64,000 nt of DNA from an uncultured Verrucomicrobiae bacterium (lineage in GTDB: Bacteria; Verrucomicrobiota; Verrucomicrobiia; Chthoniobacterales; JAFAMB01): positions 288,001-352,000 of the forward strand of contig CAVXLD010000007.1 in NCBI GenBank assembly GCA_963762565.1. The letters run 5' to 3'. The position numbers and the translations under genes are program-made. The notes below the pieces were generated by a model that did no database searches, was not told the origin of the DNA, and worked only from the letters and a program-made list of their open reading frames with translations. Below are positions 4,903-56,414 of the stretch, piece by piece (positions within the stretch are counted from its first letter, which is position 1; the number at the start of each line of letters is the position of its first letter).

Positions 4903-5040
4903 CTCGCCTTAGGCTCGCCGAATAGCAAATAGCAAATAGCAAATAGCAGATAGCAAAATTGATGCAGCCCAACGCTGGGCTCGCGGACGCTTTGCTATTT
5001 GCTATCTGCTATTTGCTATTCCGAACGAGCCTCAGGCGAG
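4903..5040. repeat. Inverted-repeat element with 7-bp tandem arms (AATAGCA)n / (TTTGCTA)n
   Basis: About 5 units at 4921-4956, 4 complementary units at 4991-5020, plus outer imperfect arms ctcgccttaggctcg / cgagcctcaggcgag. Confidence 0.92.
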
Positions 5041-5132
5041 TTTCGGATGCACCAGCAAACTGAGGTTATCCTTGCTCTTCGGATTTTATCCTCGGAGTAT
5101 AGGAACGAGTTCCATCCAGTGAAGCCCCCTCA

Positions 5133-6095
5133 ATGCAACGTTCACAATTCCTTGTAGCTCCCACGATCGCGGCGCTCTCTTTCTTGTTCTGTACCGCCTC
5201 TTCATATGGTCAGGCACATACGAAGGGAAAAGAGGTATCCCCGCTCACAAAAACCCTGAAGCCAGGCGATTATGTCTGGCATCCTGAGGTTTCTCCAAAT
5301 GGGCCGGTGGTCGTTCTTGTGAGCATACCAGACCAGCTTCTTTATGTTTACCGCAACGGTGTGCGTATTGGCCGGTCGACGGTCAGCACCGGTAAACCGG
5401 GTAAGCAAACACCCACGGGCGTTTTTACCGTTCTGCAGAAAAAGGTTCGCCATGAGTCCAGCATCTACAAAGGCGCGCAGATGCCGCACATGCAGCGACT
5501 AACCTGGAGTGGGGTTGCCATGCATGCCGGCCATTTACCGGGTTACCCTGCCTCAGCAGGCTGTGTCCGGATGCCAATTGACTTTGCGGCAAAGCTTTAT
5601 TCGGTTACCGGCCTGGGGAGCACCGTTATCATTGCGGACAATCGGTCTGCGCCCAGGGAGACGACCAATCCGGGACTTTTGTTTTCTGGGAAAACTGGAA
5701 CCCCAAGTGGCAAATTCCAATGGAGCCCGGACAAGGCGCCGAAAGGGCCGTTGTCTATCATTATTAGCAATCCGGATCGGGCGGCCTATGTCTATCGTAA
5801 CGGGATAGAAATCGGGAGGGCGCCGATCAACGCAGTTCCTCGATTAGCCGGTTCCTACGTGTATAACGCGTTGGATTTGGTCGATGCTAACGGGCAACGC
5901 GAATGGATTTCTACGGCAAGCAGCCGGGGCCGCGCGCCGAACCTAAAGGATGTCGCGAGCCAGCTGGGGATTCCCCCCGAATTCGATGCCGACCTGCGCG
6001 GCTTAATTACCCCAGGCACGACGCTGGTTTTGACGAACTTGGCGGTGAACGCCGGCACCCGAAGCGCACCTGGATTCGATATCCTGACCGACTAA
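5133..6095 (+). CDS. L,D-transpeptidase (YkuD family)
   Basis: Signal peptide; STG..TPTG and AMHAG..ASAGCVR catalytic motif. Confidence 0.9.
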   Translation: MQRSQFLVAPTIAALSFLFCTASSYGQAHTKGKEVSPLTKTLKPGDYVWHPEVSPNGPVVVLVSIPDQLLYVYRNGVRIGRSTVSTGKPGKQTPTGVFTVLQKKVRHESSIYKGAQMPHMQRLTWSGVAMHAGHLPGYPASAGCVRMPIDFAAKLYSVTGLGSTVIIADNRSAPRETTNPGLLFSGKTGTPSGKFQWSPDKAPKGPLSIIISNPDRAAYVYRNGIEIGRAPINAVPRLAGSYVYNALDLVDANGQREWISTASSRGRAPNLKDVASQLGIPPEFDADLRGLITPGTTLVLTNLAVNAGTRSAPGFDILTD

Positions 6096-6101
6096 ACCAA
6101 C

Positions 6102-6277
6102 AGCAAGGAGCTAGGAGCTAGGAGCTAGGAGGGCCGATCGGCACAAAGGCGTTCCCGCACGTGGTTTGCCAGTCACATTAGTCCCATAGGTCATATAGGT
6201 CCCATCCGTTCCACCCCTACTGCCGTTTGCTATCCAGCGGATCCGCTCAGCGACAAGGGCCCTCCTAGCTCCTTGCT
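6102..6277. repeat. Inverted-repeat element with (GGAGCTA)n arm and internal 9-mer repeat
   Basis: agcaaggagctaggagctaggagctaggagggcc at 6102-6135 vs ggccctcctagctccttgct at 6258-6277; gtcccatag-like repeat at about 6181-6206. Confidence 0.85.
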
Positions 6278-6322
6278 TTTTGCGGCTATTCTAATCTGTT
6301 TTCCCGTGAGATTGGGATGCTC

Positions 6323-6781
6323 CTACAGCCCGGAACCACCCTTTAATTTAGCGGCTGCGGCTTCGGCTTTCGCTGCGGCTCCGCGTTCAAGGTAGCCGTC
6401 GGTCGCCAGGATCAGAATGTGGTCGAGTTTCATGTGGATCGCGGTAAACCCTTTCACTACGTACATCGTCGATTCTGTTCCGTCGTCGACGACCTCCCAA
6501 CTCGCATCCGTGACTTGCTTTAGAAGGTTCTGGATATCGTTCCCGGTGAAAGGCTTGGCGCCGCCTACCCAATTTAGATAAGAAACTGCGTCTGCCTTGT
6601 CTTTGTAGAAATGAATTTCCAGGTAATGATTCCCCGTCTTAAACTTGTGCCATTCCTGGGCTTCCTTGCCGATGATCGCGCCGTATTTTGCGGTGCATTG
6701 CTTCTGGGTTAGCCCGAGTTGACCGTGGGCAGAACCCGCCACCATTAAAGTGGCGCAAGAGAGCAGAGTTATGAGCTTCAT
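6323..6781 (-). CDS. Hypothetical secreted protein
   Basis: 152-aa ORF with a clear signal peptide (MKLITLLSCATLMVAGSAHG). Confidence 0.7.
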   Translation of the reverse strand: MKLITLLSCATLMVAGSAHGQLGLTQKQCTAKYGAIIGKEAQEWHKFKTGNHYLEIHFYKDKADAVSYLNWVGGAKPFTGNDIQNLLKQVTDASWEVVDDGTESTMYVVKGFTAIHMKLDHILILATDGYLERGAAAKAEAAAAKLKGGSGL

Positions 6782-7127
6782 CGCTCTTGATTACTCTGTC
6801 TGTGAAGAACAATTCAAGCTTAGCGATGAATAAAAGATGTTGAGCAGACCCGTCTAAAGGCAGGTTAACTCGCCGACTAGGTGAGAGAAGCTCTGGCCGA
6901 TTACTTGACCTGTAACGTGTTAATCGATATAAAGAAGCGAATCGTTGGTTGGGTATTTCAGGACCCTGGTTTTCCCAGGTGTAGGCTGCGAGCCTCCCGT
7001 GCAAGGATGCCCTTCCTACAGTGAGTGAACGTTCCAAAGCACGCCGTCAGCAAGTCGACCCACCAAGTCTGCGTAGGCGGCTAGGCTCTTGCGTTCCGCT
7101 CATCGCTGCTACAGGAGGCTGCAGGTC

Positions 7128-8576
7128 ATGAACTGGATAACCATCGCGTGGCCCATGATAGCCGCTGCCTGCCTGACGCTCGCGCTAATGCAGCTGCGTA
7201 TCGCCATCGGTCGGACCCCGCGCTTACCTCATATTTTCTTCTTTCTGAACGCGCTCGCGGTCGCGTCACTCGCAGGGTTAGAACTGGCCCTGCTCGAGGC
7301 TAAGACTCTTGAGCGATATCAGTCGCTGTTGCACTGGGCGCAGCTGCCCTTGTGGCTGATGGTGGTTTCGCTTTTGGGTCTGGTGTGGAGTTTTTTTCGC
7401 ACAGGGCGGAAGTGGCTTGCGGTGGTGGCCGGAGCGCTGAACACCCTTGCTTTGGTCGCGAATTTCGTCGCCCCGACGCCCGCCATTCGACAGGCTGTCG
7501 CCATCGAGCGAGTGCACACATTCGGTGGCGCAGCGTTCACCTCTGCAAAGTTTGTTCACGGGCCCTGGAATACAGTGGCAGTGACCAGCATTGCCGCCTT
7601 GTTAATCTTTGTGTTGGATGCGTCTGTCGCGCTTTGGCGCAAAGGTGAGCGACAACGCGCGTTAGTAGCCGGCGGCGGCATCGTTCTCTTTTTGGTCGGT
7701 TCACGCGTTTACGGATCGCTGGTGGAGGCAGGTATCGTGCACACGCCCTACTTTGTTTGTTTTATGTACTTTGGCGTGCTGGTCGCGATGGGGCATGAGA
7801 TGAGCGAGCAGGTACTCCACGCAACCAAACTGGCGCGAGCGTTGCGGGAAAGCGAGAACCAGCTCGCTCACGCAAGCCGCGTTTCGACCATCGGGCAATT
7901 CACCGCCGGGCTCGCTCATGAGCTAAACCAACCGCTGGGGGCGATCCTTCGTAACGCTGAGGCGGCAGAGTTGTTTCTGCAAAGTCCTACGCCGGACTTG
8001 GAGGAACTGCGAGCCATCGTCCAGGACATTCGCAAAGACGAACAGCGTGCGTGCGACGTAATTGATCGATTACGCTCTTTCCTCAAGCGAGGCGATCTCA
8101 ACTCCGGCCCAGTAGCTGTCCGCGAGCTGCTCGAAGAGGCGGCAGCCCTTACCCGTGCCGATGCTGCTTCTAGGGGAGTGGTGCTCGAGATTGCAGCCGC
8201 GCCCGGACTGCCCGTCGTTTCCGGCGATCGCGTGCATCTCCAGCAGGTACTGGTGAACCTGGTCCTCAACGGGATGGAAGCGATGAATGGATACCCGCAT
8301 CGGGAGCGTTCTGTTACCCTTGGAGCTCTTAAGAAGTCGCGGGATACAGTCGAAGTCTTCGTTCGTGATACAGGTCCAGGCATCGCCTCGGAAAACTTGT
8401 CGCATCTTTTCGAACCATTCTTCACCACAAAGGAGCGCGGTATGGGGTTGGGTCTAGCCATTTCGCGCACCATTATCGAGGCCCATGGCGGACGACTTTG
8501 GACCGAGCCGAATGGAGACCACCGCGGAGCTACCTTTCGATTCACATTGTCGGCCTCAGCGGCTGACAGCTTATAA
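7128..8576 (+). CDS. Membrane sensor histidine kinase (FixL/NtrB-type HisKA)
   Basis: Multi-TM N-terminus, AHELNQPL H-box, N/G1/F/G2 boxes; GGAGG upstream of ATG 7128. Confidence 0.93.
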   Translation: MNWITIAWPMIAAACLTLALMQLRIAIGRTPRLPHIFFFLNALAVASLAGLELALLEAKTLERYQSLLHWAQLPLWLMVVSLLGLVWSFFRTGRKWLAVVAGALNTLALVANFVAPTPAIRQAVAIERVHTFGGAAFTSAKFVHGPWNTVAVTSIAALLIFVLDASVALWRKGERQRALVAGGGIVLFLVGSRVYGSLVEAGIVHTPYFVCFMYFGVLVAMGHEMSEQVLHATKLARALRESENQLAHASRVSTIGQFTAGLAHELNQPLGAILRNAEAAELFLQSPTPDLEELRAIVQDIRKDEQRACDVIDRLRSFLKRGDLNSGPVAVRELLEEAAALTRADAASRGVVLEIAAAPGLPVVSGDRVHLQQVLVNLVLNGMEAMNGYPHRERSVTLGALKKSRDTVEVFVRDTGPGIASENLSHLFEPFFTTKERGMGLGLAISRTIIEAHGGRLWTEPNGDHRGATFRFTLSASAADSL

Positions 8577-8582
8577 TAATAA

Positions 8583-9197
8583 ATGAACGCAGAACCTATT
8601 GTGCATCTGATCGATGACGACGCGTTGTTTCTCACTGCGACCGCAAGGTTATTGCACGGGAGCGGCATACCGGTCGCGACGTTCCGTTCGGCTCAGGAGT
8701 TTCTGGCTTCGCTAACCTTGGAAACCCGAGGATGCGTTGTGGCGGACTTGCGGATGCCAGGCTTGACCGGCCTGGACATGCAGGCGGCGCTCGCCCGAAC
8801 CAGCAATCCATTACCGGTAATATTTCTAAGCGGATACGGCGATATACCGGCTAGTGTCCGCGCGATGCGGAATGGAGCAGAGGACTTTCTGGAGAAATGC
8901 GCACCAAAGATGCAGTTATTAGATGCCGTGCGCCGAGCTTTGGTCCGCGACGCGGAAGCACAGGAGAAACGTTGCCGAGTTAGAGAGGTTAGCGAGCGCT
9001 TTGCCTGTCTTAGCGAGCGTGAACGCGAGGTTCTTGGTCATGTTGTCCAGGGTAAGCTGAACAAACAAATCGCTTTTGATCTGGCTATTCATGAACGCAC
9101 GGTCAAACTGCACCGGACTTCAATTACCAGGAAGTTGCGGGTATATTCAGTCGCCAATCTAACCCGCCTCGCCCACGAACTACGATTGTTCGAATAG
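8583..9197 (+). CDS. FixJ-type response regulator (REC + LuxR HTH)
   Basis: IDDD, DLRMPG, LSEREREV, NKQIAFDL..TVKLHR. Confidence 0.93.
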   Translation: MNAEPIVHLIDDDALFLTATARLLHGSGIPVATFRSAQEFLASLTLETRGCVVADLRMPGLTGLDMQAALARTSNPLPVIFLSGYGDIPASVRAMRNGAEDFLEKCAPKMQLLDAVRRALVRDAEAQEKRCRVREVSERFACLSEREREVLGHVVQGKLNKQIAFDLAIHERTVKLHRTSITRKLRVYSVANLTRLAHELRLFE

Positions 9198-9539
9198 GTC
9201 TGCCGGGTCTGCATCGTGGTAGCTCGTCAAGCTGGCTCCGCGAAAGTATTTCCAGCCCCCGGGCGCGGGATGCAATTCCGACACAGCCCAGTACTCCAAC
9301 CCTCCAATACTCTATCACCCAGCTCGGCGGGATTCGAGGACAGCCTGTCCGCCGTAGCCCAGGCTCCATGTTGCCACCCGCTCGAGGTCGGCCTCGCAAG
9401 CGATGCGCGCTCCACAACCAGGACGTTGGCGAAGGCGGAAGGACGACGAGGAGGAGGAGAACGAAGTGCCTGTGAGATGTGCCCTAAAGGGCAGTAGCTG
9501 CAACATCGTTCCCAGTTTATCCTCGGCATTACAAACCGG

Positions 9540-9956
9540 GTGAGCACCAGTATCAGAACTTATGTTGCCGTCGTCGACGATGATCAAAGCTTCTGCCGAT
9601 CGCTCGATCGGCTACTACGCGCGGCTGGCTTTCATTCGGTTACCTATCGAACAGCGGAGGATTTCTTACACGACAAGAAACGGCCACAGTTTGATTGCCT
9701 CGTGCTTGATATCAAGCTTCCCGGCATTTCCGGCATCGAGTTGCAAGGCCAACTCAAAGCCGAGGCAGTGCCGACACCGGTGATCTTTGTCACCTCTCAC
9801 GACAGCCCGGAACTACAGATGCAGGCGCAGGCCACTGGCTGCATCGCTTATTTCCGCAAGACGGACCCAGGTGATGCACTCATTGATTCAATTCGCCGGC
9901 TAGCGATGGGGCCATCTTCGCCCAAACCTCCCTTTAACCAAGGACACCGTTTCTGA
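9540..9956 (+). CDS. Single-domain response regulator
   Basis: VVDDD, LDIKLPG, FVTS and conserved K in receiver positions. Confidence 0.88.
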   Translation: MSTSIRTYVAVVDDDQSFCRSLDRLLRAAGFHSVTYRTAEDFLHDKKRPQFDCLVLDIKLPGISGIELQGQLKAEAVPTPVIFVTSHDSPELQMQAQATGCIAYFRKTDPGDALIDSIRRLAMGPSSPKPPFNQGHRF

Positions 9957-10009
9957 AAGGAAGCAAGGCACACCTAACAATCTCATCTGACAGCACGATT
10001 CCTCCCGAA

Positions 10010-11719: not shown

Positions 11720-11724
11720 GAGCG

Positions 11725-12696: not shown

Positions 12697-12721
12697 ACAA
12701 AACCTAGTTTCTCGCGACCTG

Positions 12722-13855: not shown

Positions 13856-13876
13856 AGCCGGCAATTAACTCACTTT

Positions 13877-32174: not shown

Positions 32175-33145
32175 ATCCCGTCCTGTAGGGACGCTGTGAT
32201 CTCTATCCCTGGCTGTGCCTGAGAGCTAACGGCGCCGTTGACCGACTCAATCATACCGTCCCGCTGGGACGGGGCACCTTTTTATACGCACCCCAGGCAG
32301 TAAACTGCCTGGCTAGTGCGCCGTGGAACGCGCATCACAGCAGGTGAGAGTCCTGCATTGTTAAACCGTGAAAGAACAAGAAGTACAAAGTAAGGGCGTT
32401 GTCGAGAGGCGGGGTCTGAAGCAACCGAGTACGAGACACCTAGTCCGCAACGCAAGTGAACACGATTCGGCAAGGCAAGCTGGTGAGCCTGCTAGCCAAG
32501 AGCGAAACCAAGTCCGCCAAGAGCGGAACCAGTGGCATTCACAGAGCACGGGAAAGGATGGCCATTGGAGCTTGTCGGGTGGTTGGTGGTGGAATGGGAG
32601 TCGAAGTGATGAGCGGTTAACACGGGAGAACCACGTAGAGAACGAGACTGGCGTTCATTCCGCTGAGAGGGCAAAGAGGGCGGACAAAGAACCAGGCTAC
32701 GTGGAAGTCAGAGCGTCCATAGTAGCGAAGAAGCGGGGTAACGCCCGTGGAGCCAAGGGACGTAGGAAGATAGAACGAATCAGGTCAGCCGGAAGGAAGA
32801 AAACCCCGTTAGTGATCAACCTCTTGAGAGCTCGATCTATACAAGGGTGGAGAACTCTGTCCCGCGAAGGGAGCACAGAGGAATACCTTCCAGCCAACAC
32901 TGATCCATTGCTGGCAGGCTGCCGCAAACGGCAGTCAGACACCGGGGAAAAGCAAGCCCGATGTCGCCGAACCTCGAACTTTCTCGTTGAGGTTCCCAGG
33001 TTCAATTCGGCATGTCAGTCTCACTGTAGACCCTATCGACTGGAGAGCCGGATGCGGGAAAACCGCCTGTCCGGTTCGGAGGGAGGGGCGGCTCCAATAC
33101 AGTCGTCCCTACCCCTATCCTTCATTCAGTCCCTTCGGGACAAAC
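32175..33145. repeat. REP-like multi-palindrome element split by the group II intron
   Basis: Three related palindromes gtcctgtagggac, gtcccgctgggac and gtcccttcgggac, plus hairpin ccaggcag-taaa-ctgcctgg; flanks rejoin as ...cctggcta|ccttcattcagtcccttcgggac. Confidence 0.7.
32316..33118 (+). ncRNA. Group II intron, ORF-less (803 nt)
   Basis: 5' GTGCG at 32316; domain V GAGCCGGATGCGGGAAAACCGCCTGTCCGGTTC (33045-33077, AGC triad); domain VI with bulged A, ending ..CCCCTAT; candidate EBS1 TAGCCA (32493-32498) complementary to the 5' exon end TGGCTA; no RT ORF. Confidence 0.92.
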
Positions 33146-33203
33146 GGCTTCGCCGCGAATTCGCAGCCCCGTAAAAGACCGGGTTTTTCAACAGCCTGCG
33201 GGG

Positions 33204-45268: not shown

Positions 45269-45802
45269 CTAAGCTCCAAATCGGGTGAGACCAGTCAGAT
45301 CAGGTTTCGGTCCGGCTAATAATTGAGTTAGTACAAAATAGATGGTGTCGGCCGAGGGCGGGCACCCCGGGACAAATACGTCCACCGTTACATACTCATG
45401 CACCGGACGAGCCTTGGGTAGCAATGGGGGAACCACCTGTTTCGGCACTTGCCGATTCAGCTGCGCGTTTTCGATGTACGAACGATTCTCCAGATCCCGA
45501 ACCGAAAACCGGTTCCGCATACCGGGTACATTCGAAGTCACCGCGCAGTCTCCCAGTGAGACCAGGATTTTGCTTCGTTGCCGAACCTTCCGGATTTTCT
45601 CCAGATCCTCTTCACTGCTCACGGCCCCTTCGACGAGCACAATATCCACATTCTCCGGATACTCTTTGGTATCGACTAGTGGGCTGTAAACCAGATCAAC
45701 TAACCCGGCCAGCTCAAGCCAGCGTTCATCCATGTCCAGCGCCGACATGTGGCAGCCGGAACAACCATCCAGCCAAATTGTGGCTAGTTTCACTTTGCTC
45801 AT
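45269..45802 (-). CDS. hoxY: Bidirectional hydrogenase small subunit
   Basis: [17 protein letters not shown]. Confidence 0.95.
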
Positions 45803-46503
45803 CTTGGTTGTTGGCGCATGAGCGCCAGGTAGGGCAGAAACTCTCGCTGTTTCGCCATCTCAGCCACGGATTTGCCTTTTTCAAAAAGCGCACCAGTAGG
45901 ACAGACTTGGACACACTTCCCGCAACTTGTGCAGGTCTCAGAACTGCCCCATGGCTGATTCAAATCGGTGATCACCCGCGAATTGGTGCCGCGTCCCATT
46001 ACATCCCAAGTGTGAGCCCCTTCAATCTCATCGCAAACCCGAACACACCGGGTGCAAAGGATGCAGCGATTGTGATCGACCACGAAGCGATCATGCGACG
46101 CATCTACCGTCGCTTGGGGATACAGATAGGAGAATCGCACGTGCGTCATTCCGTGCTGCTGAGCCAGGCTCTGTAATTCGCAATGGCCGTTCGAAACGCA
46201 TACTGCGCAAATATGGTTTCGTTCCGCAAACAGCAGCTCCAGAATCATTAGCCGATATTTGCCCAACCGCTCGGTATCAGTCTTCACCTCCATGCCTTCT
46301 GAAACTTTGGTAACGCATGCCGGTAACAGTTTCGCGGAGCCCGCTACTTCCACCAGGCATAATCGGCAGGCGCCGGCTTCGCTTAGCCCTTCTAACCGAC
46401 AGAGTGTGGGAATCTTTATCCCGGCATCAGTCGCTGCCTCGAGGAGCGTTTGTTCATCCTCAGCACTCACATGCTGTTCGTTGATGGTTAACGTTTTAGC
46501 CAT
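45799..46503 (-). CDS. hoxU: Bidirectional hydrogenase diaphorase Fe-S subunit
   Basis: IPTLC, GACRLC, HICAVC..CELQ, CILCTRC, CTSCGKC. Confidence 0.95.
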
Positions 46504-46517: not shown

Positions 46518-46718
46518 CAGTAAGCGGTAAGCAGTAAGCGGTAAGCAGTAAGCGGTAAGCGGTAAGCGGTAATAGTGCTTGCGAACACAGGGGCTTGGAC
46601 GCAGGAACGTGTGCTTACTTTGTATAAATAACTTCATTAGAAGTTGGCAGGTTCTTACTGTTGTGATGTTTATTTTTCGAGTAGCTATTGCTTACCGCTT
46701 ACCGCTTACCGCTTACTG
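46518..46718. repeat. Inverted-repeat element with (CRGTAAG)8 / (CTTACYG)4 arms inside the hox operon
   Basis: Units at 46518-46573 and 46691-46718 around an AT-rich spacer. Confidence 0.93.
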
Positions 46719-46720
46719 GT

Positions 46721-48319
46721 TTACTGGTTAGTGTCCTGGAGTAATTCCAGATACTCGTTTCTAAAATAACGGAGGGTACTTAGCACAGGATTTGGGGCGG
46801 TCTGTCCAAGGCCGCAAAGACTGGTGTGTTTAACCAAATCACAGAGCTCTTCTAATTGCTCCAAGTCTTTCAGAGTGCCCCGGCGTTCGACAATCTTGTT
46901 CAAGAGTTCGTACATTTGCACGGTGCCGGCCCGGCAGGGGATACATTTACCGCACGACTCCTCCATGCAGAACTGCATGTAGAAACGAGCCACGTCCACC
47001 ATGTTCGTATGCTCGTCCATGACGACCATGCCGCCTGATCCCATAATCGAGCCTAAGCTCACTAAGGATTCGTAATCGACCGGCGTATCAAAGTGTTCGC
47101 TGGGAATACAACCTCCGGAGGGTCCCCCGGTTTGCACTGCCTTGATTCTAGCTCCATCCGGAGCACCGCCTCCCAGATCTTGAACGATCTCACGAATCGT
47201 TATCCCGATTGGCACTTCAATTAGCCCGGTATTTCGTATCTTTCCGGTCAACGAAAAGACTTTCGTTCCTTTGCTTTTTTCCGTGCCCAATGCGGCGAAC
47301 CATTCTGGCCCTTTGTCCAGAATCGGGACGATGTTCGCATAAGTTTCGACGTTATTAATTAACGTAGGATAACCCCACAGCCCGCTTTGAGCCGGGAAAG
47401 GTGGACGAGGGTGCGGCTGTCCCCGTTTGCCTTCGATCGACGCCATCAGGGCCGTCTCTTCGCCGCAGACAAAAGCGCCGGCGCCGATGCGAAGTTCAAT
47501 ATTGAAATTGAACGGAGATTCAAAGATACCGCTCCCCAGCAAGCCATGATGTTTGGCTTGACGGATCGCGGTTTGCAGGCGGCTGACTGCCAGCGGGTAT
47601 TCAGCACGGACATAGAGGTATGCCTGGTCCGCCCCAACCGCGAAACCGGCGATCGCCATTCCTTCCAGTACCCGATGCGGATCGCTCTCCAGCACGCTGC
47701 GATCCATAAAAGCACCCGGGTCACCCTCGTCGCCGTTGCAGATAACGAATTTGTGCAGGCCCGGAGATTTTGCAACAGTACCCCACTTAAGACCGGTCGG
47801 GTAACCAGCGCCGCCCCGGCCGCGCAAACCGCTTTTGATGACTGCGTCGATCACCTCGGTTGGCTGCATTTCCGACAAAACATGATGCAACGTGCTATAC
47901 CCTCCGGCTTCGATGTAATCCTCGATTCGTTCCGGATCGATGCGTCCGCTGTTGGCGCATACGACCAAGGTTTGACGTCTGAAGAATGGATGGCTCGGGT
48001 CTCCCAGCTCGGCCTCAGCTACGCCGCCGGCGAGCGCCTCCACAATGGACGGAGCGTTCTCCGGAGTGACATATTGGTAAAGCAGGCCGCCCGGTTCTAC
48101 GGTCACCATTGGCCCTTGACCACACGAACCCATACAACCAACCCGCCGGACCTCTACTCGGCTGACCATGCCTTTGTCGGAGACAGCCTGCTGAAGCGTT
48201 TCTTTGATTTCGGCTGCTCGGGAGGACATGCAACCTGCAGCCATACAACAACGAATGCAGATTTCCTTTCGGGCCTGCTTTTCCTTCTCGGCAACCTCTT
48301 GCAATTGTTCAAGGACCAC
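46721..48319 (-). CDS. hoxF: Bidirectional hydrogenase diaphorase subunit (NuoF-like)
   Basis: [41 protein letters not shown]. Confidence 0.95.
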
Positions 48320-49178: not shown

Positions 49179-49339
49179 TAAGCCGAGTCCTTTTCTTGTT
49201 TCCGGTTCATTTGTCAGCTTGGTCTGCCACCCTCGCCGAAAGAAAGGTGGGCAGTACCAGAGCTGGTCAGCAAAAAGCAAAACAGGGCGAGACAACGCGC
49301 TCGTTTTTTGAAATGATCAGGCTACAGAAAGCAGCCCCC

Positions 49340-50542
49340 ATGATTACTCCCCACGTGATCGTGATTGGCGCCGGATCCACAGGATCGGCAACCGCCCACG
49401 ATTTAGCGTTGCGCGGCTTAAGTGTCACCGTCATCGAACGCGGCGAAGTCGCTTTCGGCACGACCGGGCGCAACCATTGTCTGTTGCATTCCGGCGGCCG
49501 CTACTGTGTGACCGACCAGGAATCCGCCATAGAGTGCATCGACGAGAATCTCATTCTGCGGAAGATCATGCCCGATCTTCTCGAATTGAATGACGGTCTT
49601 TTTGTGGCGGTCAGCGAAAGTGATCTTGCGTTCAAGCAAAAATTCCTCGAAGGCTGTGCCGCTTGCCATATCCCAGCCCGCGAGATTACCGTTGCTCACG
49701 CTCTGGCCATTGAGCCATTTCTTAACCCGGCGATTTTGACGGCAGTCCAGATACCGGACGGCGTTTTTGAACCATTCCGGTTTTGTCTGGCCTTTCTGGC
49801 GACCGCCCTCCAAAACGGCGCCACGGTTCGCACTTTTACGGAGGTCACTGATTTTACCTTTTCCAACCGGAACCTATCCGGCGTGAAAATCCACGATCAC
49901 CGGACGGGTAACGATGAAACCCTGGGCGCCGACCTGATTATCAACGCTTCCGGCCCATGGGCTGGAGAAATGGCCGCTAAAGCGGGAGTTCAGGTTCCAG
50001 AGGTGCCGACTGCGGGGGTGATGGTGGCACTGGATTGTCGCTTGAACAACATGGTTATTAATCGCCTCAACAAACCGTCTGACGGCGATATTGTTGTGCC
50101 GCAACGCGCTACTTCGGTGATCGGCACCACCTCCTGGGCGGTCGAAGATCCCGACTTAATTACCATACCGGCCGAGCACGTGGAGCGGATGATTTCCCAA
50201 GGGGAGCAACTATTGCCCGTCGTGAAAAAAGTGCCCATGCGGGCGAAGATGGCAGTTGCTCGGCCGCTCATTGCCACGGCTGGGACGGATGCTCGAGAGT
50301 TAAGCCGCACCTTCGAGTGTTTCGACCATGCTCGTGACGGCGTGAATGGCTTTGTCACGATAACCGGCGGCAAAACCACTACCGCACGCGCGATGGCCGA
50401 GCGCGTCGCCGACATCGTTTGTCAGAAGCTCGGTATCAAGGCGGAGTGTCGGACCCGAGATGTTCCACTTAGTTCTTACCGCTTGTTCTTTGCTAAACAG
50501 AATCTTTTTAAAAAAACGTCCCCGCTGCTGGCCGCAGGCTAA
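49340..50542 (+). CDS. GlpA-like FAD-dependent dehydrogenase (DAO fold) lacking the C-terminal BFD-type Fe-S domain
   Basis: GAGSTG, GTTGRNHCLLHSGGRY, NASGPWA, SDGDIVVP, GGKTTTARAMAE. Confidence 0.85.
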   Translation: MITPHVIVIGAGSTGSATAHDLALRGLSVTVIERGEVAFGTTGRNHCLLHSGGRYCVTDQESAIECIDENLILRKIMPDLLELNDGLFVAVSESDLAFKQKFLEGCAACHIPAREITVAHALAIEPFLNPAILTAVQIPDGVFEPFRFCLAFLATALQNGATVRTFTEVTDFTFSNRNLSGVKIHDHRTGNDETLGADLIINASGPWAGEMAAKAGVQVPEVPTAGVMVALDCRLNNMVINRLNKPSDGDIVVPQRATSVIGTTSWAVEDPDLITIPAEHVERMISQGEQLLPVVKKVPMRAKMAVARPLIATAGTDARELSRTFECFDHARDGVNGFVTITGGKTTTARAMAERVADIVCQKLGIKAECRTRDVPLSSYRLFFAKQNLFKKTSPLLAAG

Positions 50543-50564
50543 CCCGTTTAGGGAGGTATTTCGA

Positions 50565-51335
50565 ATGAACATGCTTAAGGTTCCAATAGAAATCTTCCGC
50601 TATAAGCTAGGGCAGCCGGCTCGTTACGATACTTTCACGATCGAAATCGCAGACACTGCCCATGTGATTGATGCGATTGATATGGTTTGGGCGAAGCATG
50701 ACCCAACTCTAACCTTTCGCCGAGCTTGTCACCATTCGTCGTGTGGTTCTTGTGCGTTGCGGATTAACGGGGTCGAGAAGTTACCCTGCATCGCTCGCAT
50801 AACCGACGTTTGGAATGGTAAAATGCCCGTACGCCTCGAGCCGCTTCGTAATTTCCCGGTTGTCAGCGATCTGGTAGTAGAAGTTGGCTACTTTTTTGAA
50901 CGGATGGCCGCTGCCGGAATGACAATTACCTGCGAAGCCGAAGGCTTCTTGCCATTGACTGTCGACAGCTTTGCTGTGGCTGACGTTCTTCCCAAAACCG
51001 TCGAACTACCGGAGAACCTTTCTCGGTTCAATCGGTTCGAGCAATGCATTGAGTGTGGGATTTGCATGAGCGCTTGCCCAACCATGGCGACCGACGACAA
51101 ATTTCTTGGGCCGGCGGGTCTAGCCGCCATTTATCAGGCTCGACAAAAAACGAATGATCCGGCAACGATTAAACATTTGTTAGGATTAGCCGACGGAGAG
51201 CATGGCGTTTGGCGGTGTCACAGTGCGTTCGAATGCACCGAGGCATGTCCACAAGCCGTTGATCCTGCCTCTAAGATAATGGCTTTGCGCCGCGAGCTCG
51301 CTCTCCGCCGGCTAAGAACGCTGTTCAAAAGATAG
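50565..51335 (+). CDS. SdhB/FrdB-like iron-sulfur subunit
   Basis: CHHSSCGSC..C, CIECGICMSACP, CHSAFECTEACP; GGAGG upstream of ATG 50565. Confidence 0.9.
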   Translation: MNMLKVPIEIFRYKLGQPARYDTFTIEIADTAHVIDAIDMVWAKHDPTLTFRRACHHSSCGSCALRINGVEKLPCIARITDVWNGKMPVRLEPLRNFPVVSDLVVEVGYFFERMAAAGMTITCEAEGFLPLTVDSFAVADVLPKTVELPENLSRFNRFEQCIECGICMSACPTMATDDKFLGPAGLAAIYQARQKTNDPATIKHLLGLADGEHGVWRCHSAFECTEACPQAVDPASKIMALRRELALRRLRTLFKR

Positions 51336-51337
51336 GT

Positions 51338-51727
51338 ATGTCAACGCTCAACTACAGTAAAGCCAAGCGAGCCGCTCGTTGGTTCGATGTGCGTGGGCGG
51401 AAATCCGGGATGTGGGCTTATGCTTTGAATCGTATTACCGGGATTGGTTTGGTTATCTATCTCTATCTTCACTTGGGAGTGTTAAGTACCCTGATAAGGG
51501 GCCAATCAGCCTGGGATTCGTTTGTGGCGCTAGCGCGTTCCCCATTCTATTTGGCGCTCGATGTGATTTTGCTTGCCGGCATATTAATTCATGGCCTTAA
51601 CGGCTTACGCCTGGCCGTGACTGGTTTCGGGTTCAATGTTGGTGCACAAAAAGCTTTCTTCGTTGTCTTAATGATTATCGGCGCAATCATTTTGATAATT
51701 GCCGCTTTGAAGATTTTCCAGGTGTGA
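51338..51727 (+). CDS. SdhC-like cytochrome b556 anchor subunit
   Basis: LNRITG, YLHL, HGLNGLR; three TM helices. Confidence 0.85.
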   Translation: MSTLNYSKAKRAARWFDVRGRKSGMWAYALNRITGIGLVIYLYLHLGVLSTLIRGQSAWDSFVALARSPFYLALDVILLAGILIHGLNGLRLAVTGFGFNVGAQKAFFVVLMIIGAIILIIAALKIFQV

Positions 51728-52092
51728 ATATGACAGAACATTCCTTTGCTGAAGAATCGAAACCTACTGCGGCCTGGCTTTGGCAGGTATTCACCGGGGT
51801 CGGACTTGTAGTCCTGCTTGGGCTGCACATGATCGCTAACCATTTCGTGGCTAAAGGTGGGTTACGCGATTACGCCGCCGTGGTCTCCTACCTCCGGAAC
51901 CCGGTCGTTTTGACGCTTGAAGTACTCTTTCTCATTTGTGTAACCACTCATGCCTTGCTTGGCGTTCGGGCAATTTTTCTCGACTTTGGTCTGAACCAGC
52001 GCGCCGAGAAACGATTGACTAAGATTCTGAACATCGTCGGGGTTCTCACTGTCGGTTACGGGTTAGTGGTGATGTGGTTTGTTATCCGGTAA
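51724..52092 (+). CDS. SdhD-like hydrophobic anchor subunit
   Basis: WLWQVFTG..H, HALLGVRAIFLD; three TM helices. Confidence 0.85.
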   Translation: MNMTEHSFAEESKPTAAWLWQVFTGVGLVVLLGLHMIANHFVAKGGLRDYAAVVSYLRNPVVLTLEVLFLICVTTHALLGVRAIFLDFGLNQRAEKRLTKILNIVGVLTVGYGLVVMWFVIR

Positions 52093-52280
52093 TGTTTGTC
52101 CTCGAGGGACCGAATGAAGGTAGCCAGAAATCGCGGCGAGTCCTTTGCTTCGGGCGACGCAACGGTTCTCATCAGCCTGACGCAGGCAATCCAAGATCGA
52201 TGTTCCACAATCGATGGTTAGTTCGGTCGCAATGCCTCCGTACAATTAGCTCATCAAGTTTATCACCACGGAGCCCATCT

Positions 52281-52754
52281 ATGAAAAGTTTAGTTTCCCA
52301 AGAGCCGGTTACGCACATCCAACCGTTTATTCGGAGGGTCGTAGTCGCAGTCGATTTAACCGCCCGTTCCACCACCACCTCCGAGTATGCAGTCAAGATC
52401 GCTAAATCCTTTGGTGCCTCGCTGCTATTCGTTTACGTCCATCCCATGGAAACTATGTTCAACTTTGTCATGAACGGTGGCTACGATCTGATCGACGAGG
52501 AGCAACTAAATCGGCGATATGCGCTCAGTAACCTGGTGGAAGCGGCCTGCAAAGAATATCCCTTCTGTACCTCCACTTTTTTGGTTGGCGATCCCGCTGA
52601 AGAAGTTGCTAAATATGCCCAAGAGACGGACGCCGATCTAATCGTAGTGGCTAGCCACCATCCGAATGTCCTGGCGAGCTTACTTCATCTCGACCAAGCT
52701 CCCAAGATGATCCATCGAGCGCCGTGTCCGGTGTTGGTTTATCAGACAGAGTGA
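52281..52754 (+). CDS. Universal stress protein
   Basis: VVVAVDLT, GDPAEEV, DLIVVASHHP, APCPVLVY. Confidence 0.9.
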   Translation: MKSLVSQEPVTHIQPFIRRVVVAVDLTARSTTTSEYAVKIAKSFGASLLFVYVHPMETMFNFVMNGGYDLIDEEQLNRRYALSNLVEAACKEYPFCTSTFLVGDPAEEVAKYAQETDADLIVVASHHPNVLASLLHLDQAPKMIHRAPCPVLVYQTE

Positions 52755-52755
52755 A

Positions 52756-52934
52756 AGAAGTGAGAAGTGAGAAGTGATTGGTAGAGTGCGCCGACGCCGT
52801 TGAGTGACATCGTTTGATTACTCCAACGCTCACTACTCCCCGCCGATCCCCCGATTCACCGTCCCCCCTGACGCTTACCAATCACTAATCACCAATCACT
52901 AATCACCAATCACTAATCACTTCTCACCTCTCAC
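52756..52934. repeat. Inverted-repeat element with (AGAAGTG)n and (AATCACY)n/(TCTCAC) arms
   Basis: agaagtg x3 + attggta at 52756-52783; taccaatcactaatcacc... ttctcacctctcac at 52876-52934. Confidence 0.88.
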
Positions 52935-52979
52935 GCCTACTTCTCCCCGGCTAGCGCTTCGAATCCAGCGATCATAACT

Positions 52980-53026
52980 GCGAACAGCGAACGGTGAACG
53001 GTGAACCGCCAACCGCCAACCGCGAA
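52980..53026 (+). repeat. Single 7-bp tandem array (GGTGAAC/CGCCAAC)
   Basis: gcgaacagcgaacggtgaacggtgaaccgccaaccgccaaccgcgaa. Confidence 0.75.
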
Positions 53027-53070
53027 GCCCACCAACCCGCGGTTAAGCTCGAACAACCGCGGGTTGGTGG

Positions 53071-54483
53071 ATGTCCAAGGATCAGCCACACTTATCCACC
53101 GTGAAAAAGCACTATCAATTAGCAGTTGTGGGATCCGGATCCGGAGGTCAGGAGGCCGCGCTGGCTGCGGCAAAGGAAGGAATATCCGTGCTTTTAGTTG
53201 AAAAAGCGACTCTGGGCGGGACCTGTCTTCATCATGGCTGTTACCCTGTCCGAGCGCTGCGGGCGTGCGCGGAAGCAGCCAAGGATCGCCAGCTAAGCTC
53301 GAAATTCGGCCTGGAAAACGGTGGTAGCATGGTGGGTTTAGAAAAATGGCTTACCATTCAACGGCGAGTTAGCGCTCGCTTGACCCAAGATATAAACAAT
53401 CAACTCGAAAAAGCCGGCGTCACAATTCGGTTTGCCAAAGCTTCGCTCACCTCCCGGAATGAACTTCGGATAGCCAGCAGCCATGGCGAGATCGAGGAGA
53501 TCAAAGCTGACTACGTCGTAGTGGCTACCGGTTCGAGGCCCGCCTTTGAACCGAGGCTGTCTGGAACACACTACGTCAATAGCGATGCCTTGCTGACTCG
53601 AGCCGAGATACCGAAACATCTACTAATCGTTGGAGGTGGCTACATCGGCTGCGAGTTCGCTTCAATATTTCGTTCCTTAGGATCCGTTGTCACCCTTGTC
53701 GAAAGGGAGAACCGGTTGTTGCCAACTTGGGACGCTTCACTAGGCAGGTATATTGCTGACTGTCTGCGTTCGGCCGGAATCAATATTTTGCTTGAGCACG
53801 ATATGGACTTCCCAAGTCCAGGCCAGACCTTGGATGAACCGCTTATTGTCCTCGAGAACGGGATCCGCATTAACCCCGACCTGGTTCTGGCTGCGATTGG
53901 ACGGAAACCGAACATCGAAGATCTCGGCCTAGAAAATTTGGGTATTGAGACCAACCCTTTTGTGGTAGTCAATGAGCAACTGCAGACCAGTTGTCCGACA
54001 ATCTTCGCTGTCGGAGACATCAATGGATTAAGTTTGCTGGACAGCTCAGCGGTAGCGCAAGCTCGCATCGCGGTGGGTGCTATTTTCGGAAGGAAAGAGC
54101 CGTTCTCAGCGCGCTGGATCCCGCGATGTATCCATACGGATCCTCCGATTGCTTCTATCGGTTGGAACGAAGAAGAGGCGAATACAGCCGGCCTTGAAGT
54201 GATTTCTCATTGTCAGACTTTCCGGTTGGTTACGGATGATGAAAGAACGGTAGTGAATCCGTTGCCGACGATGGTGAAGGTTTTACTGCAACCCGAATCT
54301 CGCCAAATCATCGGTGTACACGTCGTTGGAACCCATGCGGCGGAGATTGTCAATCTCGCATCGATAGCAGCCCGGACTGGACTGACGCTTGATCAATTAC
54401 TGCAAGTTCCCTTAGTTCACCCCAGCGCGACTGAAGTGTTCCAGGAATGCGCCAAAGGTCTGGGGAAGGTCCCGGCGGGGTAG
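53071..54483 (+). CDS. Pyridine nucleotide-disulfide oxidoreductase (dihydrolipoamide dehydrogenase-like); start may be GTG 53101
   Basis: GSGSGG, GGTCLHHGCYP, ATGSRP, GGGYIG, AVGD, HPSATE. Confidence 0.88.
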   Translation: MSKDQPHLSTVKKHYQLAVVGSGSGGQEAALAAAKEGISVLLVEKATLGGTCLHHGCYPVRALRACAEAAKDRQLSSKFGLENGGSMVGLEKWLTIQRRVSARLTQDINNQLEKAGVTIRFAKASLTSRNELRIASSHGEIEEIKADYVVVATGSRPAFEPRLSGTHYVNSDALLTRAEIPKHLLIVGGGYIGCEFASIFRSLGSVVTLVERENRLLPTWDASLGRYIADCLRSAGINILLEHDMDFPSPGQTLDEPLIVLENGIRINPDLVLAAIGRKPNIEDLGLENLGIETNPFVVVNEQLQTSCPTIFAVGDINGLSLLDSSAVAQARIAVGAIFGRKEPFSARWIPRCIHTDPPIASIGWNEEEANTAGLEVISHCQTFRLVTDDERTVVNPLPTMVKVLLQPESRQIIGVHVVGTHAAEIVNLASIAARTGLTLDQLLQVPLVHPSATEVFQECAKGLGKVPAG

Positions 54484-54492
54484 GGGTCAGGG

Positions 54493-54761
54493 GGTTATGA
54501 GTTATGAGTTATAAGTTATAGGTTGTGGGTTGTAGTTCGCGCCTGCAATTTTCGCTGCGGTGGCTTCCGTGGGTTGGTTCTGGTGTGTTTTCGCTATCCG
54601 CTTAATCGAGCAAGACCGGAGCTTTGTTGACCAAAACGCGGATAGCAGGTCAGAGGGGAATCCGGGAAATTCGGAATCATGAAACCAGGTACGCGACGAG
54701 AATTAATAACCCTGCACGTGGTTACCTAAAACCCATAACAGATAACCTATAGCCTATAACT
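54493..54761. repeat. Inverted-repeat element with (RGTTRTR)n / (YATAACY-like)n arms
   Basis: ggttatgagttatgagttataagttataggttgtgggttgtag vs ctaaaacccataacagataacctatagcctataact. Confidence 0.82.
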
Positions 54762-55309
54762 TACGACTTGTGATCCAATAGCAGCCTGGTCGTGACCACG
54801 CCCGCTAAACAGGTGATCCCTCCGGCAACCGCCGCCGGTATCGAGGCGGTGGTTAACAGTGGAACGTTCAGAGAGAACCAAAGTGCGGACGTAATCATGC
54901 AGCAGATCACCGCGTCCAGCCACAAGGCGGCAATACCAATTAGAACGCCAGCCAACGTGCACAGCAGCCATTTAGAAAAGACGACATTCGGAGGAGCGAA
55001 AATGTCAAAAGCAAAAAAAACAATAATCCAAGGAAGCATAAGAGGAAATCCGGCAACCGTGATCATTAGGGCAAGCGCTGCGGCAATCATCGCTGTGGAC
55101 GTTGGTGAAAATGGAAGCTGGGCATCGAAGCCGCCCAGCCCGATGATCCCTTGAATTGTTAGGGTAAGCCAAAGGGCGAATAAGCCCGTTAAGAGAGCCA
55201 GCGTGGCTCCCTGGAGCTGCTTCGTATACAAAGCTAAGCTGCTGGTCGGATGCGAACTCTTAGGTTGTGCAATGTGGTTGAATTCAGGAAGAAAATGGAC
55301 GGTGTTCAT
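54761..55309 (-). CDS. Hypothetical membrane protein
   Basis: Several hydrophobic helices; start uncertain. Confidence 0.6.
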   Translation of the reverse strand: MNTVHFLPEFNHIAQPKSSHPTSSLALYTKQLQGATLALLTGLFALWLTLTIQGIIGLGGFDAQLPFSPTSTAMIAAALALMITVAGFPLMLPWIIVFFAFDIFAPPNVVFSKWLLCTLAGVLIGIAALWLDAVICCMITSALWFSLNVPLLTTASIPAAVAGGITCLAGVVTTRLLLDHKS

Positions 55310-55421
55310 ACTTCCGTTTATACCCGTAACCAGAGTCGCACCTCCCGCCCTTTGGCAAAGGTTCAACTTGGATTGCTTTTGCGATAGCTCGCCTGACCCG
55401 GAACGAGGACGCTTCCCCCAG

Positions 55422-55466
55422 CTACAACCTACAACTTAAAACCTATAACCTACAACCTATAACTTA
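55422..55466. repeat. 7-bp tandem array (CTAYAAC-like)
   Basis: ctacaacctacaacttaaaacctataacctacaacctataac. Confidence 0.85.
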
Positions 55467-56324
55467 ACCTCTATCCCATGCCGCGAGGAAAGTATCCACC
55501 AACATCGGTAGCAGGTGGCTGTAACCTCCCTCTAAGATGGCGGCGGTGGGTAGGCCTGTTTCTCTGAGTCGTTGGCCAAGGCCGGCAAAATGTTCAGGCT
55601 GTAACGTCATATCGGTGAGTGGATCACCAGCAAAGGCATCAAAGCCGGCTGATACCAAGAGCAGGTCAGGAATAAACTGCAGGCATCGATCCAGTGCTTG
55701 GTGGAGGGCTGACATGTGCTCAGTAGCGTCGCTGCCCGGGGAGATCGGCCAATTGAACACATTGCCGCCAGAGCTGTTGCCAGTACCTGGATAGCCCGGG
55801 TATTGGTGGACTGAGGCGAACCGGATCCGATTATTACCGGAAACAATCGCTTCCGTACCGTTACCATGGTGGGCGTCGAAATCCCAGATGGCGACTCGTT
55901 CACAACCGGTGGCGATAGCGTGTAGTGCGGCGATGGCGATCGAATTTAAATAGCAGAAACCCATCGCCTTGCTCGACGTGGCGTGATGGCCAGGGGGGCG
56001 CATAAGCGAGAAACTTTCTCGACCGCGAAGTGCCAGATCAATGGAACCAATCGCAGCTCCTGCGGCGCGGCGAGCGTGTTCGTCGATACCCGGATAGTAG
56101 GGGGTATCCGCGTCGAAATCGACGGGTTGCCGCAGCCGGTCCAGATGCTCCTGGCGGTGCCCGCGCAGGACCTCTTCCTCAGCGGCTAGTCGCGGTCTAA
56201 TCCAAGGCCAATCGGAGTGTTTATCGAGTAGATAAGCCTCGGTGTTGATCAACCGCGCCGGATGTTCAGGATGCTCATCCTGGCCAAACTCGGTCGCGGC
56301 TTTGTCATAGATCAACGTAACCAT
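55464..56324 (-). CDS. Zn-dependent deacetylase (HDAC/AcuC family)
   Basis: HPE..RL, RPPGHHA, GFC, DFDAHHGNGT, SAGFDA, LEGGY. Confidence 0.93.
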   Translation of the reverse strand: MVTLIYDKAATEFGQDEHPEHPARLINTEAYLLDKHSDWPWIRPRLAAEEEVLRGHRQEHLDRLRQPVDFDADTPYYPGIDEHARRAAGAAIGSIDLALRGRESFSLMRPPGHHATSSKAMGFCYLNSIAIAALHAIATGCERVAIWDFDAHHGNGTEAIVSGNNRIRFASVHQYPGYPGTGNSSGGNVFNWPISPGSDATEHMSALHQALDRCLQFIPDLLLVSAGFDAFAGDPLTDMTLQPEHFAGLGQRLRETGLPTAAILEGGYSHLLPMLVDTFLAAWDRG

Positions 56325-56354
56325 GAATAGAAATCGATTCCGGCTGCCTGGAAC

Positions 56355-56414
56355 AAACACCTAACACCTAACACGTAAAACCTAAAACCTAAAACTTACA
56401 ACGAATAACCTATA
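56355..56414. repeat. 7-bp tandem array (CTAAMAC-like)
   Basis: aaacacctaacacctaacacgtaaaacctaaaacctaaaacttacaac. Confidence 0.85.

Follow-up and report, generated by a model that had tools for sequence, protein, structure and literature searches.

The 64,000-nucleotide stretch of DNA analysed here (the window) is positions 288001-352000 of contig C7 (C7:288001-352000) in the genome assembly of an uncultured Verrucomicrobiae bacterium (G000; 6.12 Mb, 54% G+C), and gaps between its genes carry arrays of tandemly repeated heptanucleotides. Located with Tandem Repeats Finder and by direct reading of the letters, these arrays form five inverted pairs (E1 to E5) and three solo arrays (Table 1). 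All of them were recovered where an earlier reading of the sequence alone (the sequence-only reading) had placed them, and the units that it listed (AGCAAAT, AGCTAGG, RGTAAGC, AGTGAGA, AGTTATG and GGTGAAC) match those read in the window. Hairpins of this design, with stems of tandem 7-base repeats, number hundreds in the intergenic gaps of this soil Verrucomicrobial genome.

In the window, E1 sits between the divergent genes for a DUF3016 protein (4405-4899, minus strand) and a YkuD transpeptidase; its 5' arm begins 4 nt from the start of the former, and the YkuD gene starts at 5133. A convergent open reading frame (ORF; 6323-6781) has its end near the 3' arm of E2. E3 lies inside a hox operon, in the gap between a hoxF-like and a hoxU-like gene, where the TAA stop of hoxF (46721-46723) falls within array-like sequence beside the element and the final codons are unlike those of its relatives. 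The solo arrays at 55422-55467 and 56356-56415 belong to the same rare unit family as E5, RGTTNTA, which occurs four times inside 2 kb of the window. Scored against 100 mononucleotide shuffles, the predicted RNA folds reach z -12.3 with 46 arm-arm pairs for E1, z -9.3 with 63 arm-arm pairs for E3 and z -5.1 for E4, and are weak for E2 and E5 (z -2.1 and -2.0). Contigs from public sequencing runs, one of which may be a source sample, lend weak support: they span E5 and the two downstream solo arrays with no differing letters. No RNA run was found to contain the locus. Most public contigs over the window end at arrays and give joints from other loci, and the only usable difference is a single 7-nt (one-unit) deletion in one contig at 54507, within the 5' arm of E5.

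Table 1. Heptamer arrays of the window, numbered from its first nucleotide
Feature	Position	Strand	Units and setting
E1 5' arm	4903-4957		Outer non-repeat stem 4903-4916, with AATAGCA x5.3 at 4921-4957
E1 3' arm	4991-5040		TTTGCTA x4.3 at 4991-5020, with outer stem 5027-5040
E2 5' arm	6102-6131		AGCTAGG x4.3, 7 nt past stop of YkuD gene (5133-6095)
E2 3' arm	~6261-6277		Short complement, ~2.3 units, then T-run; found by eye
E3 arm by start of hoxU-like gene (45799-46503, minus)	46518-46572		Alternating AGTAAGC/GGTAAGC, 7.6 units
E3 arm over end of hoxF-like gene (46721-48319, minus)	46690-46729		
E4 5' arm	52751-52783		RGTGAGA units (AGAAGTG array at 52756-52777), then GTGATTG; begins at stop of Usp gene (52074-52754)
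E4 3' arm	52877-52945		Expanded AATCACY units, then CTTCTCA units; longer than 5' arm
Solo array	52976-53026	+	GAACRGY drifting to CAACCGC; upstream of oxidoreductase gene
E5 5' arm	54494-54533		RGTTATR/GGTTGTR units, 10 nt past stop of pyridine-nucleotide-disulphide oxidoreductase gene (53071-54483)
E5 loop	54534-54723	+	
E5 3' arm	54724-54760		Degenerate ACCTATA-type units; abuts end of minus-strand ORF 54761-55366
Solo array	55422-55467	-	Minus-strand RGTTRTA, right after stop (55464) of minus-strand histone-deacetylase-family gene
Solo array	56356-56415	-	Minus-strand RGTTTTA/GGTGTTA (array at 56356-56395); overlaps start of gene 55464-56360

Across the whole genome, arrays with a net self-match of at least 16 number 427 for period 7, 79 for period 8 and 74 for period 9, against 5-24 arrays for each of the periods 2-6 and 10-13, and a more sensitive detector gave 1329 heptamer arrays. 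Inverted heptamer pairs within 1.6 kb number 351; a control in which the sequence was reversed but left uncomplemented gave 23, and direct pairs number 110. In a stricter set of 510 arrays, 358 are intergenic and 16 lie within long ORFs, genes having been called crudely as longest ORFs. About 50 strand-collapsed units make up 515 arrays, about a dozen of them dominating, with counts of 99 arrays for AATCACC, 59 for AAACGCC, 43 for AAATGAC, 32 for AAGCAGT and 30 for AAATAGC. The units of the window recur among them: AATCACC, AAGCAGT and AAATAGC in the numbers just given, AAGTGAG in 24 arrays and AGCTAGG in 21. That the two arms of an element match each other and not those of other elements, as the sequence-only reading had it, therefore holds inside the window and fails genome-wide, where the same 50 or so units are shared by all 515 arrays. 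Its view that the spacers are unrelated holds in part: the loops of E1 and E3 recur nowhere else in the genome, 36 of the 65 loops of strict pairs are likewise unique (no other match at E up to 1e-4), and the other 29 contain other dispersed repeats. Pairs of same-family arrays at distances of 1.6-30 kb number 164, compared with 121.6 ± 11.5 in shuffles, which indicates local clustering. When the arms were compared in mirror register, the best register gave 0.90 identity against 0.86 for all in-phase registers, and inner and outer alignments were indistinguishable.

The polarity that the sequence-only reading had described in the window is borne out genome-wide. An inverted repeat is identical on both strands, so a purine-rich arm that comes first is an intrinsic property of the element and no effect of strand. 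Purines outnumber pyrimidines in the 5' arm of 243 of 277 heptamer hairpins (243 versus 34), of 44/47 hairpins made of 8-mers and of 39/44 made of 9-mers. Among the 65 strict pairs, G exceeds C in the 5' arm of 49, equals it in 12 and falls below it in 4, so that the G-rich strands converge, and within any one unit family it is always the same strand that forms the 5' arm (GGTGATT in 16/16 and GGCGTTT in 6/6, for instance). Among hairpins, loop length showed no trend with reversed polarity, a relation examined with Rho loading in mind. The arrays lie flush with ORF ends, the strand that reads inward usually carries a stop triplet, and with a 7-nt period such a triplet reaches all three frames. 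A stop triplet is present on the 5'-arm strand in 54/65 pairs and on the complement in 8/65. Stop codons as the cause of polarity would fit those 54 pairs, but polarity is also preserved, in 9/9 cases, by the families GGCGTTT and CGGCGTT, which have no stop, and by the stop-free GGGAATC of Xanthomonas in the published description (PMC4692102), so stops are not a sufficient cause.

A shared phase was a further claim. In one rotation, all six units named for the window read R-G-Y-N-R (R, purine; Y, pyrimidine; N, any base). Genome-wide, 32 of 48 units, once oriented, and 340 of 510 arrays conform to RGYNRNN, whereas letter-shuffled units fit in 16.2 ± 3.1 cases and 0 of 2000 shuffles reached 32; the complementary strand fits in only 2/48 units. 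The pattern fails for GGCGTTT (59 arrays), AAATGAC (43), CGGCGTT (28) and ACAGATG (20), among them the second, third and sixth commonest units. By eye, it is also absent from many arms around four-helix-bundle genes in other phyla. A phase optimiser with no preset pattern gave 4.77 bits, compared with 3.84 ± 0.16 for shuffled units (maximum 4.22 in 40 runs), and a consensus of approximately G-S-N-R-W-T-W, which keeps the G and the purine three positions on but not the Y. The RGYNR frame thus stands for the window and as a genome-wide tendency, not as a universal rule, and the proposal that period, polarity and phase are fixed together stands for period and polarity and only in part for phase. 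We read the phase tendency as real, and as what would come from a limited set of kindred units (RGTGAnn, AGCnnnn and the like), with no strict rule behind it.

Some loops in this genome do hold a small gene. The genome has eight loci of the family that Pfam and NCBIfam name 23S_rRNA_IVP or four helix bundle protein (TIGR02436 / PF05635), which shows weak similarity to Avd, and seven of the eight lie between inverted short-period arrays. Five of these seven have 7-mer arms (GGTGATT, GTGAGAA, AATAGCC and, twice, AGTAAGC), all from families that also form gene-less hairpins; one of the remaining two has 8-mer arms and the other 6-mer arms of reversed polarity. An association of such genes with short repeats, which the sequence-only reading had suggested, is therefore present here, and it recurs in other genomes. 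The largest arrays seen, ~170 nt of GGAGTGRT and ~220 nt of CTCCAAMA 8-mers, surround a four-helix-bundle gene at C7:440889-441842; the two arms are complementary only imperfectly. A second family found in loops is GxxExxY (TIGR04256 / PF13366), with a PD-(D/E)XK fold. All 11 of its loci in the genome have a flanking inverted-repeat score of at least 19, compared with 41 of 2247 control small ORFs (1.8%), and the arms consist, as judged by eye, of ~9-nt tandem units that are often CRCRRAG-like. Ordinary small genes (MaoC, glyoxalase, ABM, EamA, OsmC, MobA-like, DLH and HNH) were found only between divergent arms, which are parts of hairpins in two adjoining gaps. The HNH case is a 196-amino-acid ORF at C1:982231-982821 between divergent AAATGAC arrays; among NCBIfam families, it is closest to the HNH regions of Cas9d, Cas9 and IscB.

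The same pairing of gene and arm was seen in 40 other genomes of the order, where the figures are counts, not tests, and overstate the support because kin genomes are not independent: inverted-repeat scores reach at least 19 in 13/27 TIGR02436 loci and 15/26 GxxExxY loci, the arm period is 7 in 13 of the 14 TIGR02436 arms that score at least 16, and for GxxExxY the best arm period is 8-10 in 23/26 and the left arm is purine-rich in 25/26. In one Bacteroidetes, one Chloroflexus and two cyanobacterial genomes, TIGR02436 loci score at least 19 in 8/16 cases and have a best arm period of 7 in 13/16. The family of the enclosed gene and the period of the arms go together, TIGR02436 with 7-mer arms and GxxExxY with 8-10-mer arms. 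Be the genes owners of the arms or colonists, the type of arm must be recognised by something. This link lends plausibility to the proposal of the sequence-only reading that the arrays may be phased protein-binding sites.

Orthologous loci in relatives, numbered here with L and characterised by the amino-acid identity of the neighbouring gene product, show that a junction between genes can gain a hairpin, lose it or have it exchanged for another, each time as a whole. At the hoxF|hoxU junction, the window has its AGTAAGC/GGTAAGC hairpin, L036 (88%) has a hairpin of 8-mers, AGTTCAGG, into which hoxF reads through, L003 (82%) takes a TAG stop from its hairpin of AGTTGTC units, and L002 (88%) has a 10-nt gap with no repeat. 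No hairpin was found at this junction in L002 and 12 further Verrucomicrobial loci that were read. The discrete gain or loss at orthologous loci on which the sequence-only reading had staked its case is therefore seen here, with three different hairpins and 13 loci without any. HoxF ends in ...LLQDTNQ in the window (46721-46750), in ...LLQSE in L002 and in ...LLQPEGSRQ in L003, where the TAG lies inside the array (~5560-5640); in L036 (~5560-5640), read-through of the 8-mer arm adds ~17 residues. The hairpins thus rewrite the HoxF C-terminus, which differs between species because of them. In L004, at ~5600-5650, a possible two-unit remnant (CTGCTAA CCGCTAA) with one mismatch per unit against the arm units of E3 stands just before hoxU, with no hairpin there.

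Other sites keep their unit family over long divergence (75-86% amino-acid identity). L081 (86%) retains an RGTTNTA array right after the oxidoreductase stop, as in the 5' arm of E5; L083 (78%) has GGTGAAC units where the window has solo array 52976-53026; and L084 (75%) has RGTGAnn units after the Usp stop, as in the 5' arm of E4, with no partner arm. Arrays can thus persist for long as solo 3' tails at orthologous sites. In L081, the DNA downstream of the array is homologous to the E5 loop up to a shared ATGAAACCAG (window 54679-54688), which opens an ORF in L081, and synteny ends exactly at the 3' arm of E5.

The explanation that we favour, and to which we give an even chance of being right, is that the window elements, which carry no gene, belong to a population of intergenic palindromes found across the genome, with stems of tandem heptamers and a purine- or G-rich 5' arm, of the same kind as the heptamer pairs of Xanthomonas and with an architecture like that of the intervening sequences (IVS) of 23S rRNA. 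This architecture consists of a long stem and a loop that is empty, is filled with DNA of local origin or with other repeats, or encodes a single small protein. By analogy with IVS, the arms would pair into long duplexes in transcripts and be removed by RNase III, the gene for which (rnc) is present in the genome (240 bits), and such removal would make insertion between co-transcribed genes nearly neutral. The arms would grow and shrink by slippage, their complementarity being kept by hairpin-templated repair or by selection, and the elements would spread mostly locally. Proteins encoded in loops would target arms of their own type, both in cis and, possibly, in trans on gene-less copies.

A number of observations weigh against this explanation. 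None of the five window loops (35-200 nt) contains a four-helix-bundle ORF or any other gene. A hmmsearch of 230 loops of 60-700 nt found no decayed TIGR02436 remnants in gene-less ones, its only five matches at E up to 1 being intact genes at four loci. The uniqueness of 36 of the 65 loops means that transposition of whole elements is not evident, and the one duplicated cassette (C3:44094 and C5:442953) is part of a kinase-regulator operon that is itself paralogous, and so points to segmental duplication, not transposition. The E5 loop, by its homology with L081, is ancestral local intergenic DNA with no imported cargo, and the earlier suggestion that the arms are the ends of a mobile element does not fit E5. 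The solo tails after stops in L081, L083 and L084 imply that no cassette is needed for arms to arise or to survive. Gene calls are crude, and polarity counted relative to genes may be biased, since arrays with stops terminate ORFs; by that count, solo arrays no more than 40 nt from a gene end have their G-rich strand directed away from the gene in 172 cases and toward it in 23. In the 6-mer family TCGTCC...CGAGGA, polarity is reversed, with the pyrimidine arm first in 44/44 hairpins, so polarity is family-specific and no physical necessity. The discount for kinship among the genomes of the order applies here as well.

Pairs of that 6-mer family lie, for example, at C1:479040-479376 and C5:382068-382597, and its octamers CGAGGACG and CGTCCTCG are among the commonest of the genome. 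One TCGTCC...CGAGGA pair surrounds a weak TIGR02436-like gene (52 bits).

The arrays could instead be primary, as heptanucleotide long simple sequence repeats (LSSRs) produced by polymerase slippage in neutral DNA, with hairpins arising secondarily by inverted duplication or template switching and the genes arriving as later colonists. The partnerless arrays of the same family at orthologous gene ends (L084, L083 and L081), the ancestral sequence of the E5 loop, the lack of cargo remnants in gene-less loops among the 230 examined, the one-unit indel between public contigs and the local clustering of unit families (164 versus 121.6 ± 11.5) all agree with such an origin, as does Mrazek's idea, as reported by MacGregor (PMC4679880), that 7 nt matches a polymerase contact. 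Slippage nevertheless predicts no polarity, and 243 hairpins to 34 were observed; all 11 GxxExxY genes lie in arms of ~9-nt units although 7-mer pairs are six times commoner (351 versus 57); the different unit in each species at hoxF|hoxU is left without explanation; and colonist genes would still need to recognise their own arm type. We consider this account rather unlikely, though it deserves to be taken seriously.

The elements might instead serve the host as RNA signals, namely terminators, 3' hairpins that stabilise mRNA, or processing sites that uncouple genes, with polarity stemming from what the cleaved halves leave on the flanking mRNAs. Arrays starting at stop codons or a few nucleotides from them, the strong predicted stems and the retention of arrays at orthologous sites across 75-86% amino-acid divergence are in keeping with such a role, and gaps between convergent genes hold slightly more of the heptamer hairpins (73/277, 26%) than their share of all gene pairs (19%). 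Yet 153 of the 277 lie between co-directional genes, and E3 is within the hox operon; the hoxF|hoxU junction is empty in 13 of 16 Verrucomicrobial loci; and units and loops vary freely among elements. As for intrinsic terminators in particular, just 17 hairpins out of 277 (6.1%, compared with 4.5% of random intergenic 14-mers) have a T4 run in the 14 nt that follow the 3' arm, E2 with its T-run being unlike the general pattern. A host-serving signal is an improbable explanation of the population.

Mobilisation in trans by a transposase whose gene lies at another place, such as a Y1 transposase of the type associated with repetitive extragenic palindromic (REP) sequences (REP-associated tyrosine transposase, RAYT) or an insertion-sequence enzyme, would make the hairpins non-autonomous elements comparable to REP doublets forming hairpins (REPINs) or to miniature inverted-repeat transposable elements, known as MITEs. 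REP/REPIN-RAYT systems are reportedly intergenic, palindromic and multi-copy, with gene-less copies. The hairpins described here are also palindromic, intergenic and multi-copy, with gain and loss, and the genome has 12 Y1_Tnp matches. However, the 10 Y1 loci that were examined are all free of tandem arrays to a distance of 600 nt, and long non-tandem palindromes of their own (inverted-repeat scores 41-52) flank four out of the five small, RAYT-sized Y1 loci with the best scores, a difference from what the REPIN-RAYT comparison calls for. No target-site duplication is visible at hoxF|hoxU, and the loops are mostly unique, 36/65 having no other genome match, which disposes of a MITE with a conserved interior. 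We regard movement of this kind as very improbable. The Y1 palindromes are a separate REP-like system of the same genome; the palindrome-flanked RAYT-like genes lie at C7:408772-409116, C3:712536-712877, C3:55497-55838 and C1:119032-119367, and three of the palindromes share a GTCCCG.AGGGAC...AGCCTGGCA motif.

Further identities were tried and rejected. As a Shine-Dalgarno-like sponge, the units of all arrays give a mean duplex energy of -4.52, compared with -4.23 ± 0.46 for letter-shuffled units; some units (GGTGATT and AGAGGTG) do pair with the 3' tail of 16S rRNA. G-quadruplex heptamers are not involved, the commonest 40 units having no GGG or CCC run on either strand, barring the CCCCCCC homopolymer, which was set aside. 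Cyanobacterial short tandemly repeated repetitive (STRR) sequences are heptamer arrays of filamentous cyanobacteria, intergenic and scattered; a cyanobacterial origin is not supported here, HIP1 being only 3.7-fold over expectation and the nearest relatives by HoxF being metagenome-assembled genomes of soil Verrucomicrobiota/Chthoniobacterales. The 23S rRNA of this genome has no IVS, the LSSU match covering model positions 1-2925 in 2851 nt with no insertion. In the rRNA operon on contig C12 (L220), inverted 9-mer arrays, AACGCCGAG (306-344) and CGGCGTTGA (3998-4033), lie 3.6 kb apart and bracket a tRNA-tRNA-23S segment, the expected spot of the RNase III processing stem.

Two other features of the window were noted. 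A hairpin-forming leader (CCAACC...GGTTA...TCGAACAA...GGGT) at 53027-53068, directly upstream of the oxidoreductase gene, can also be made out before the orthologous genes of L083 and L084, with a looser likeness in L082, L085, L087 and L088; it may be a cis-regulatory RNA, though it matches no Rfam family at gathering score. ORF 32368-33174, for which Pfam gave no match, has a group II intron catalytic domain (RF00029, 54.8 bits) at its end, at 33043-33118.

Tandem, mostly intergenic heptamers have been described in Xanthomonas (GGGAATC) and Nostoc PCC 7120 (GGGGAYT), with 70-75 convergent G-rich heptamer pairs per Xanthomonas genome (Rehm et al. 2015, PMC4692102). As presented there, the Xanthomonas repeats lie on the coding strand 0-50 bp past stops or overlapping them, and on the non-coding strand upstream of ORFs; the heptamers of both organisms are associated with changes in flanking regions, and no link to mobile elements was found (PMC4692102). 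Polarity and proximity to ORF ends are the same here as in that description. Xanthomonas differs in having one G-tract unit able to form G-quadruplexes, whereas the present genome has ~50 units, none with three or more consecutive G and most with a stop triplet. The text of PMC4692102 has 0 occurrences of S23p or IVS.

The IVS of 23S rRNA in Coxiella, Leptospira and others are described as stem-loops with terminal inverted repeats and an S23p ORF, cut by RNase III (Warrier et al. 2016, PMC4990558). The likeness to the elements favoured here lies in a stem-loop around a PF05635/TIGR02436 ORF, in the existence of ORF-less forms and in a sporadic, selfish-looking distribution with a mobility mechanism that, according to that account, is not established (PMC4990558). 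IVS, however, lie in 23S rRNA helices (25 or 45), while the stems described here are tandem heptamers between protein genes.

Heptanucleotide LSSRs, in which heptamers are the dominant tandem length, are intergenic and phylogenetically scattered (Mrazek et al. 2007, as summarised in PMC4679880). Descriptions of LSSRs and STRR sequences concern direct repeats, and as far as seen they do not include inverted pairing, fixed polarity or genes in loops. The TAACTGA repeats of Beggiatoaceae and cyanobacteria carry stops in three frames in one orientation and so overlap only ORF ends (MacGregor 2015, PMC4679880). They resemble the window arrays in being stop-bearing heptamers with indels in 7-nt steps between strains, and they differ in forming, in that report, 169 direct sets and 1 inverted one, in being oriented to downstream starts and in having a single unit.

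We tentatively raise, as a possibility on the doubtful side, that the intergenic heptamers described over decades (STRR sequences, LSSRs and Xanthomonas pairs) and the IVS of 23S rRNA form one cross-phylum class of hairpin cassettes, in which the loop protein would set the unit length of the arms and would build, bind or maintain them in cis and in trans and gene-less hairpins would be its footprints. The arm unit would then be 7 nt through a pentameric four-helix-bundle protein and 8-10 nt through the nuclease-fold GxxExxY protein, and purine-first polarity would be the signature of a protein-driven mechanism. Two puzzles, the dominance of heptamers among the tandem repeats of many bacterial genomes and the role of the selfish 23S rRNA IVS with its four-helix-bundle protein, a relative of the Avd of diversity-generating retroelements, would merge into a single question, whether loop proteins recognise or make arms of a set period. 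For the annotation of genomes from soil metagenomes, the hairpins matter in any case: they break short-read assemblies, rewrite gene ends such as the hoxF C-terminus and probably cut operon transcripts, and at least one of them coincides with a synteny breakpoint.

The Foldback (FB) transposons of Drosophila have long inverted arms of copy-variable short tandem repeats, with central DNA that is variable or absent. They are an analogy only, being eukaryotic, with much longer arms and with mobility tied to known cargo. No published link of four-helix-bundle or GxxExxY genes to heptamer repeats was found in a search that covered neither subscription journals nor the comments of family databases. 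Going by the text of the two papers concerned, heptamer arrays that pair convergently and have a set polarity with respect to ORFs were already in print (PMC4692102), as were IVS with S23p (PMC4990558). Added here are the TIGR02436 genes in loops with 7-mer arms and the GxxExxY genes in loops with 8-10-mer arms, across the order, and the extension of the former design, a TIGR02436 gene in a 7-mer-armed loop, to other phyla.

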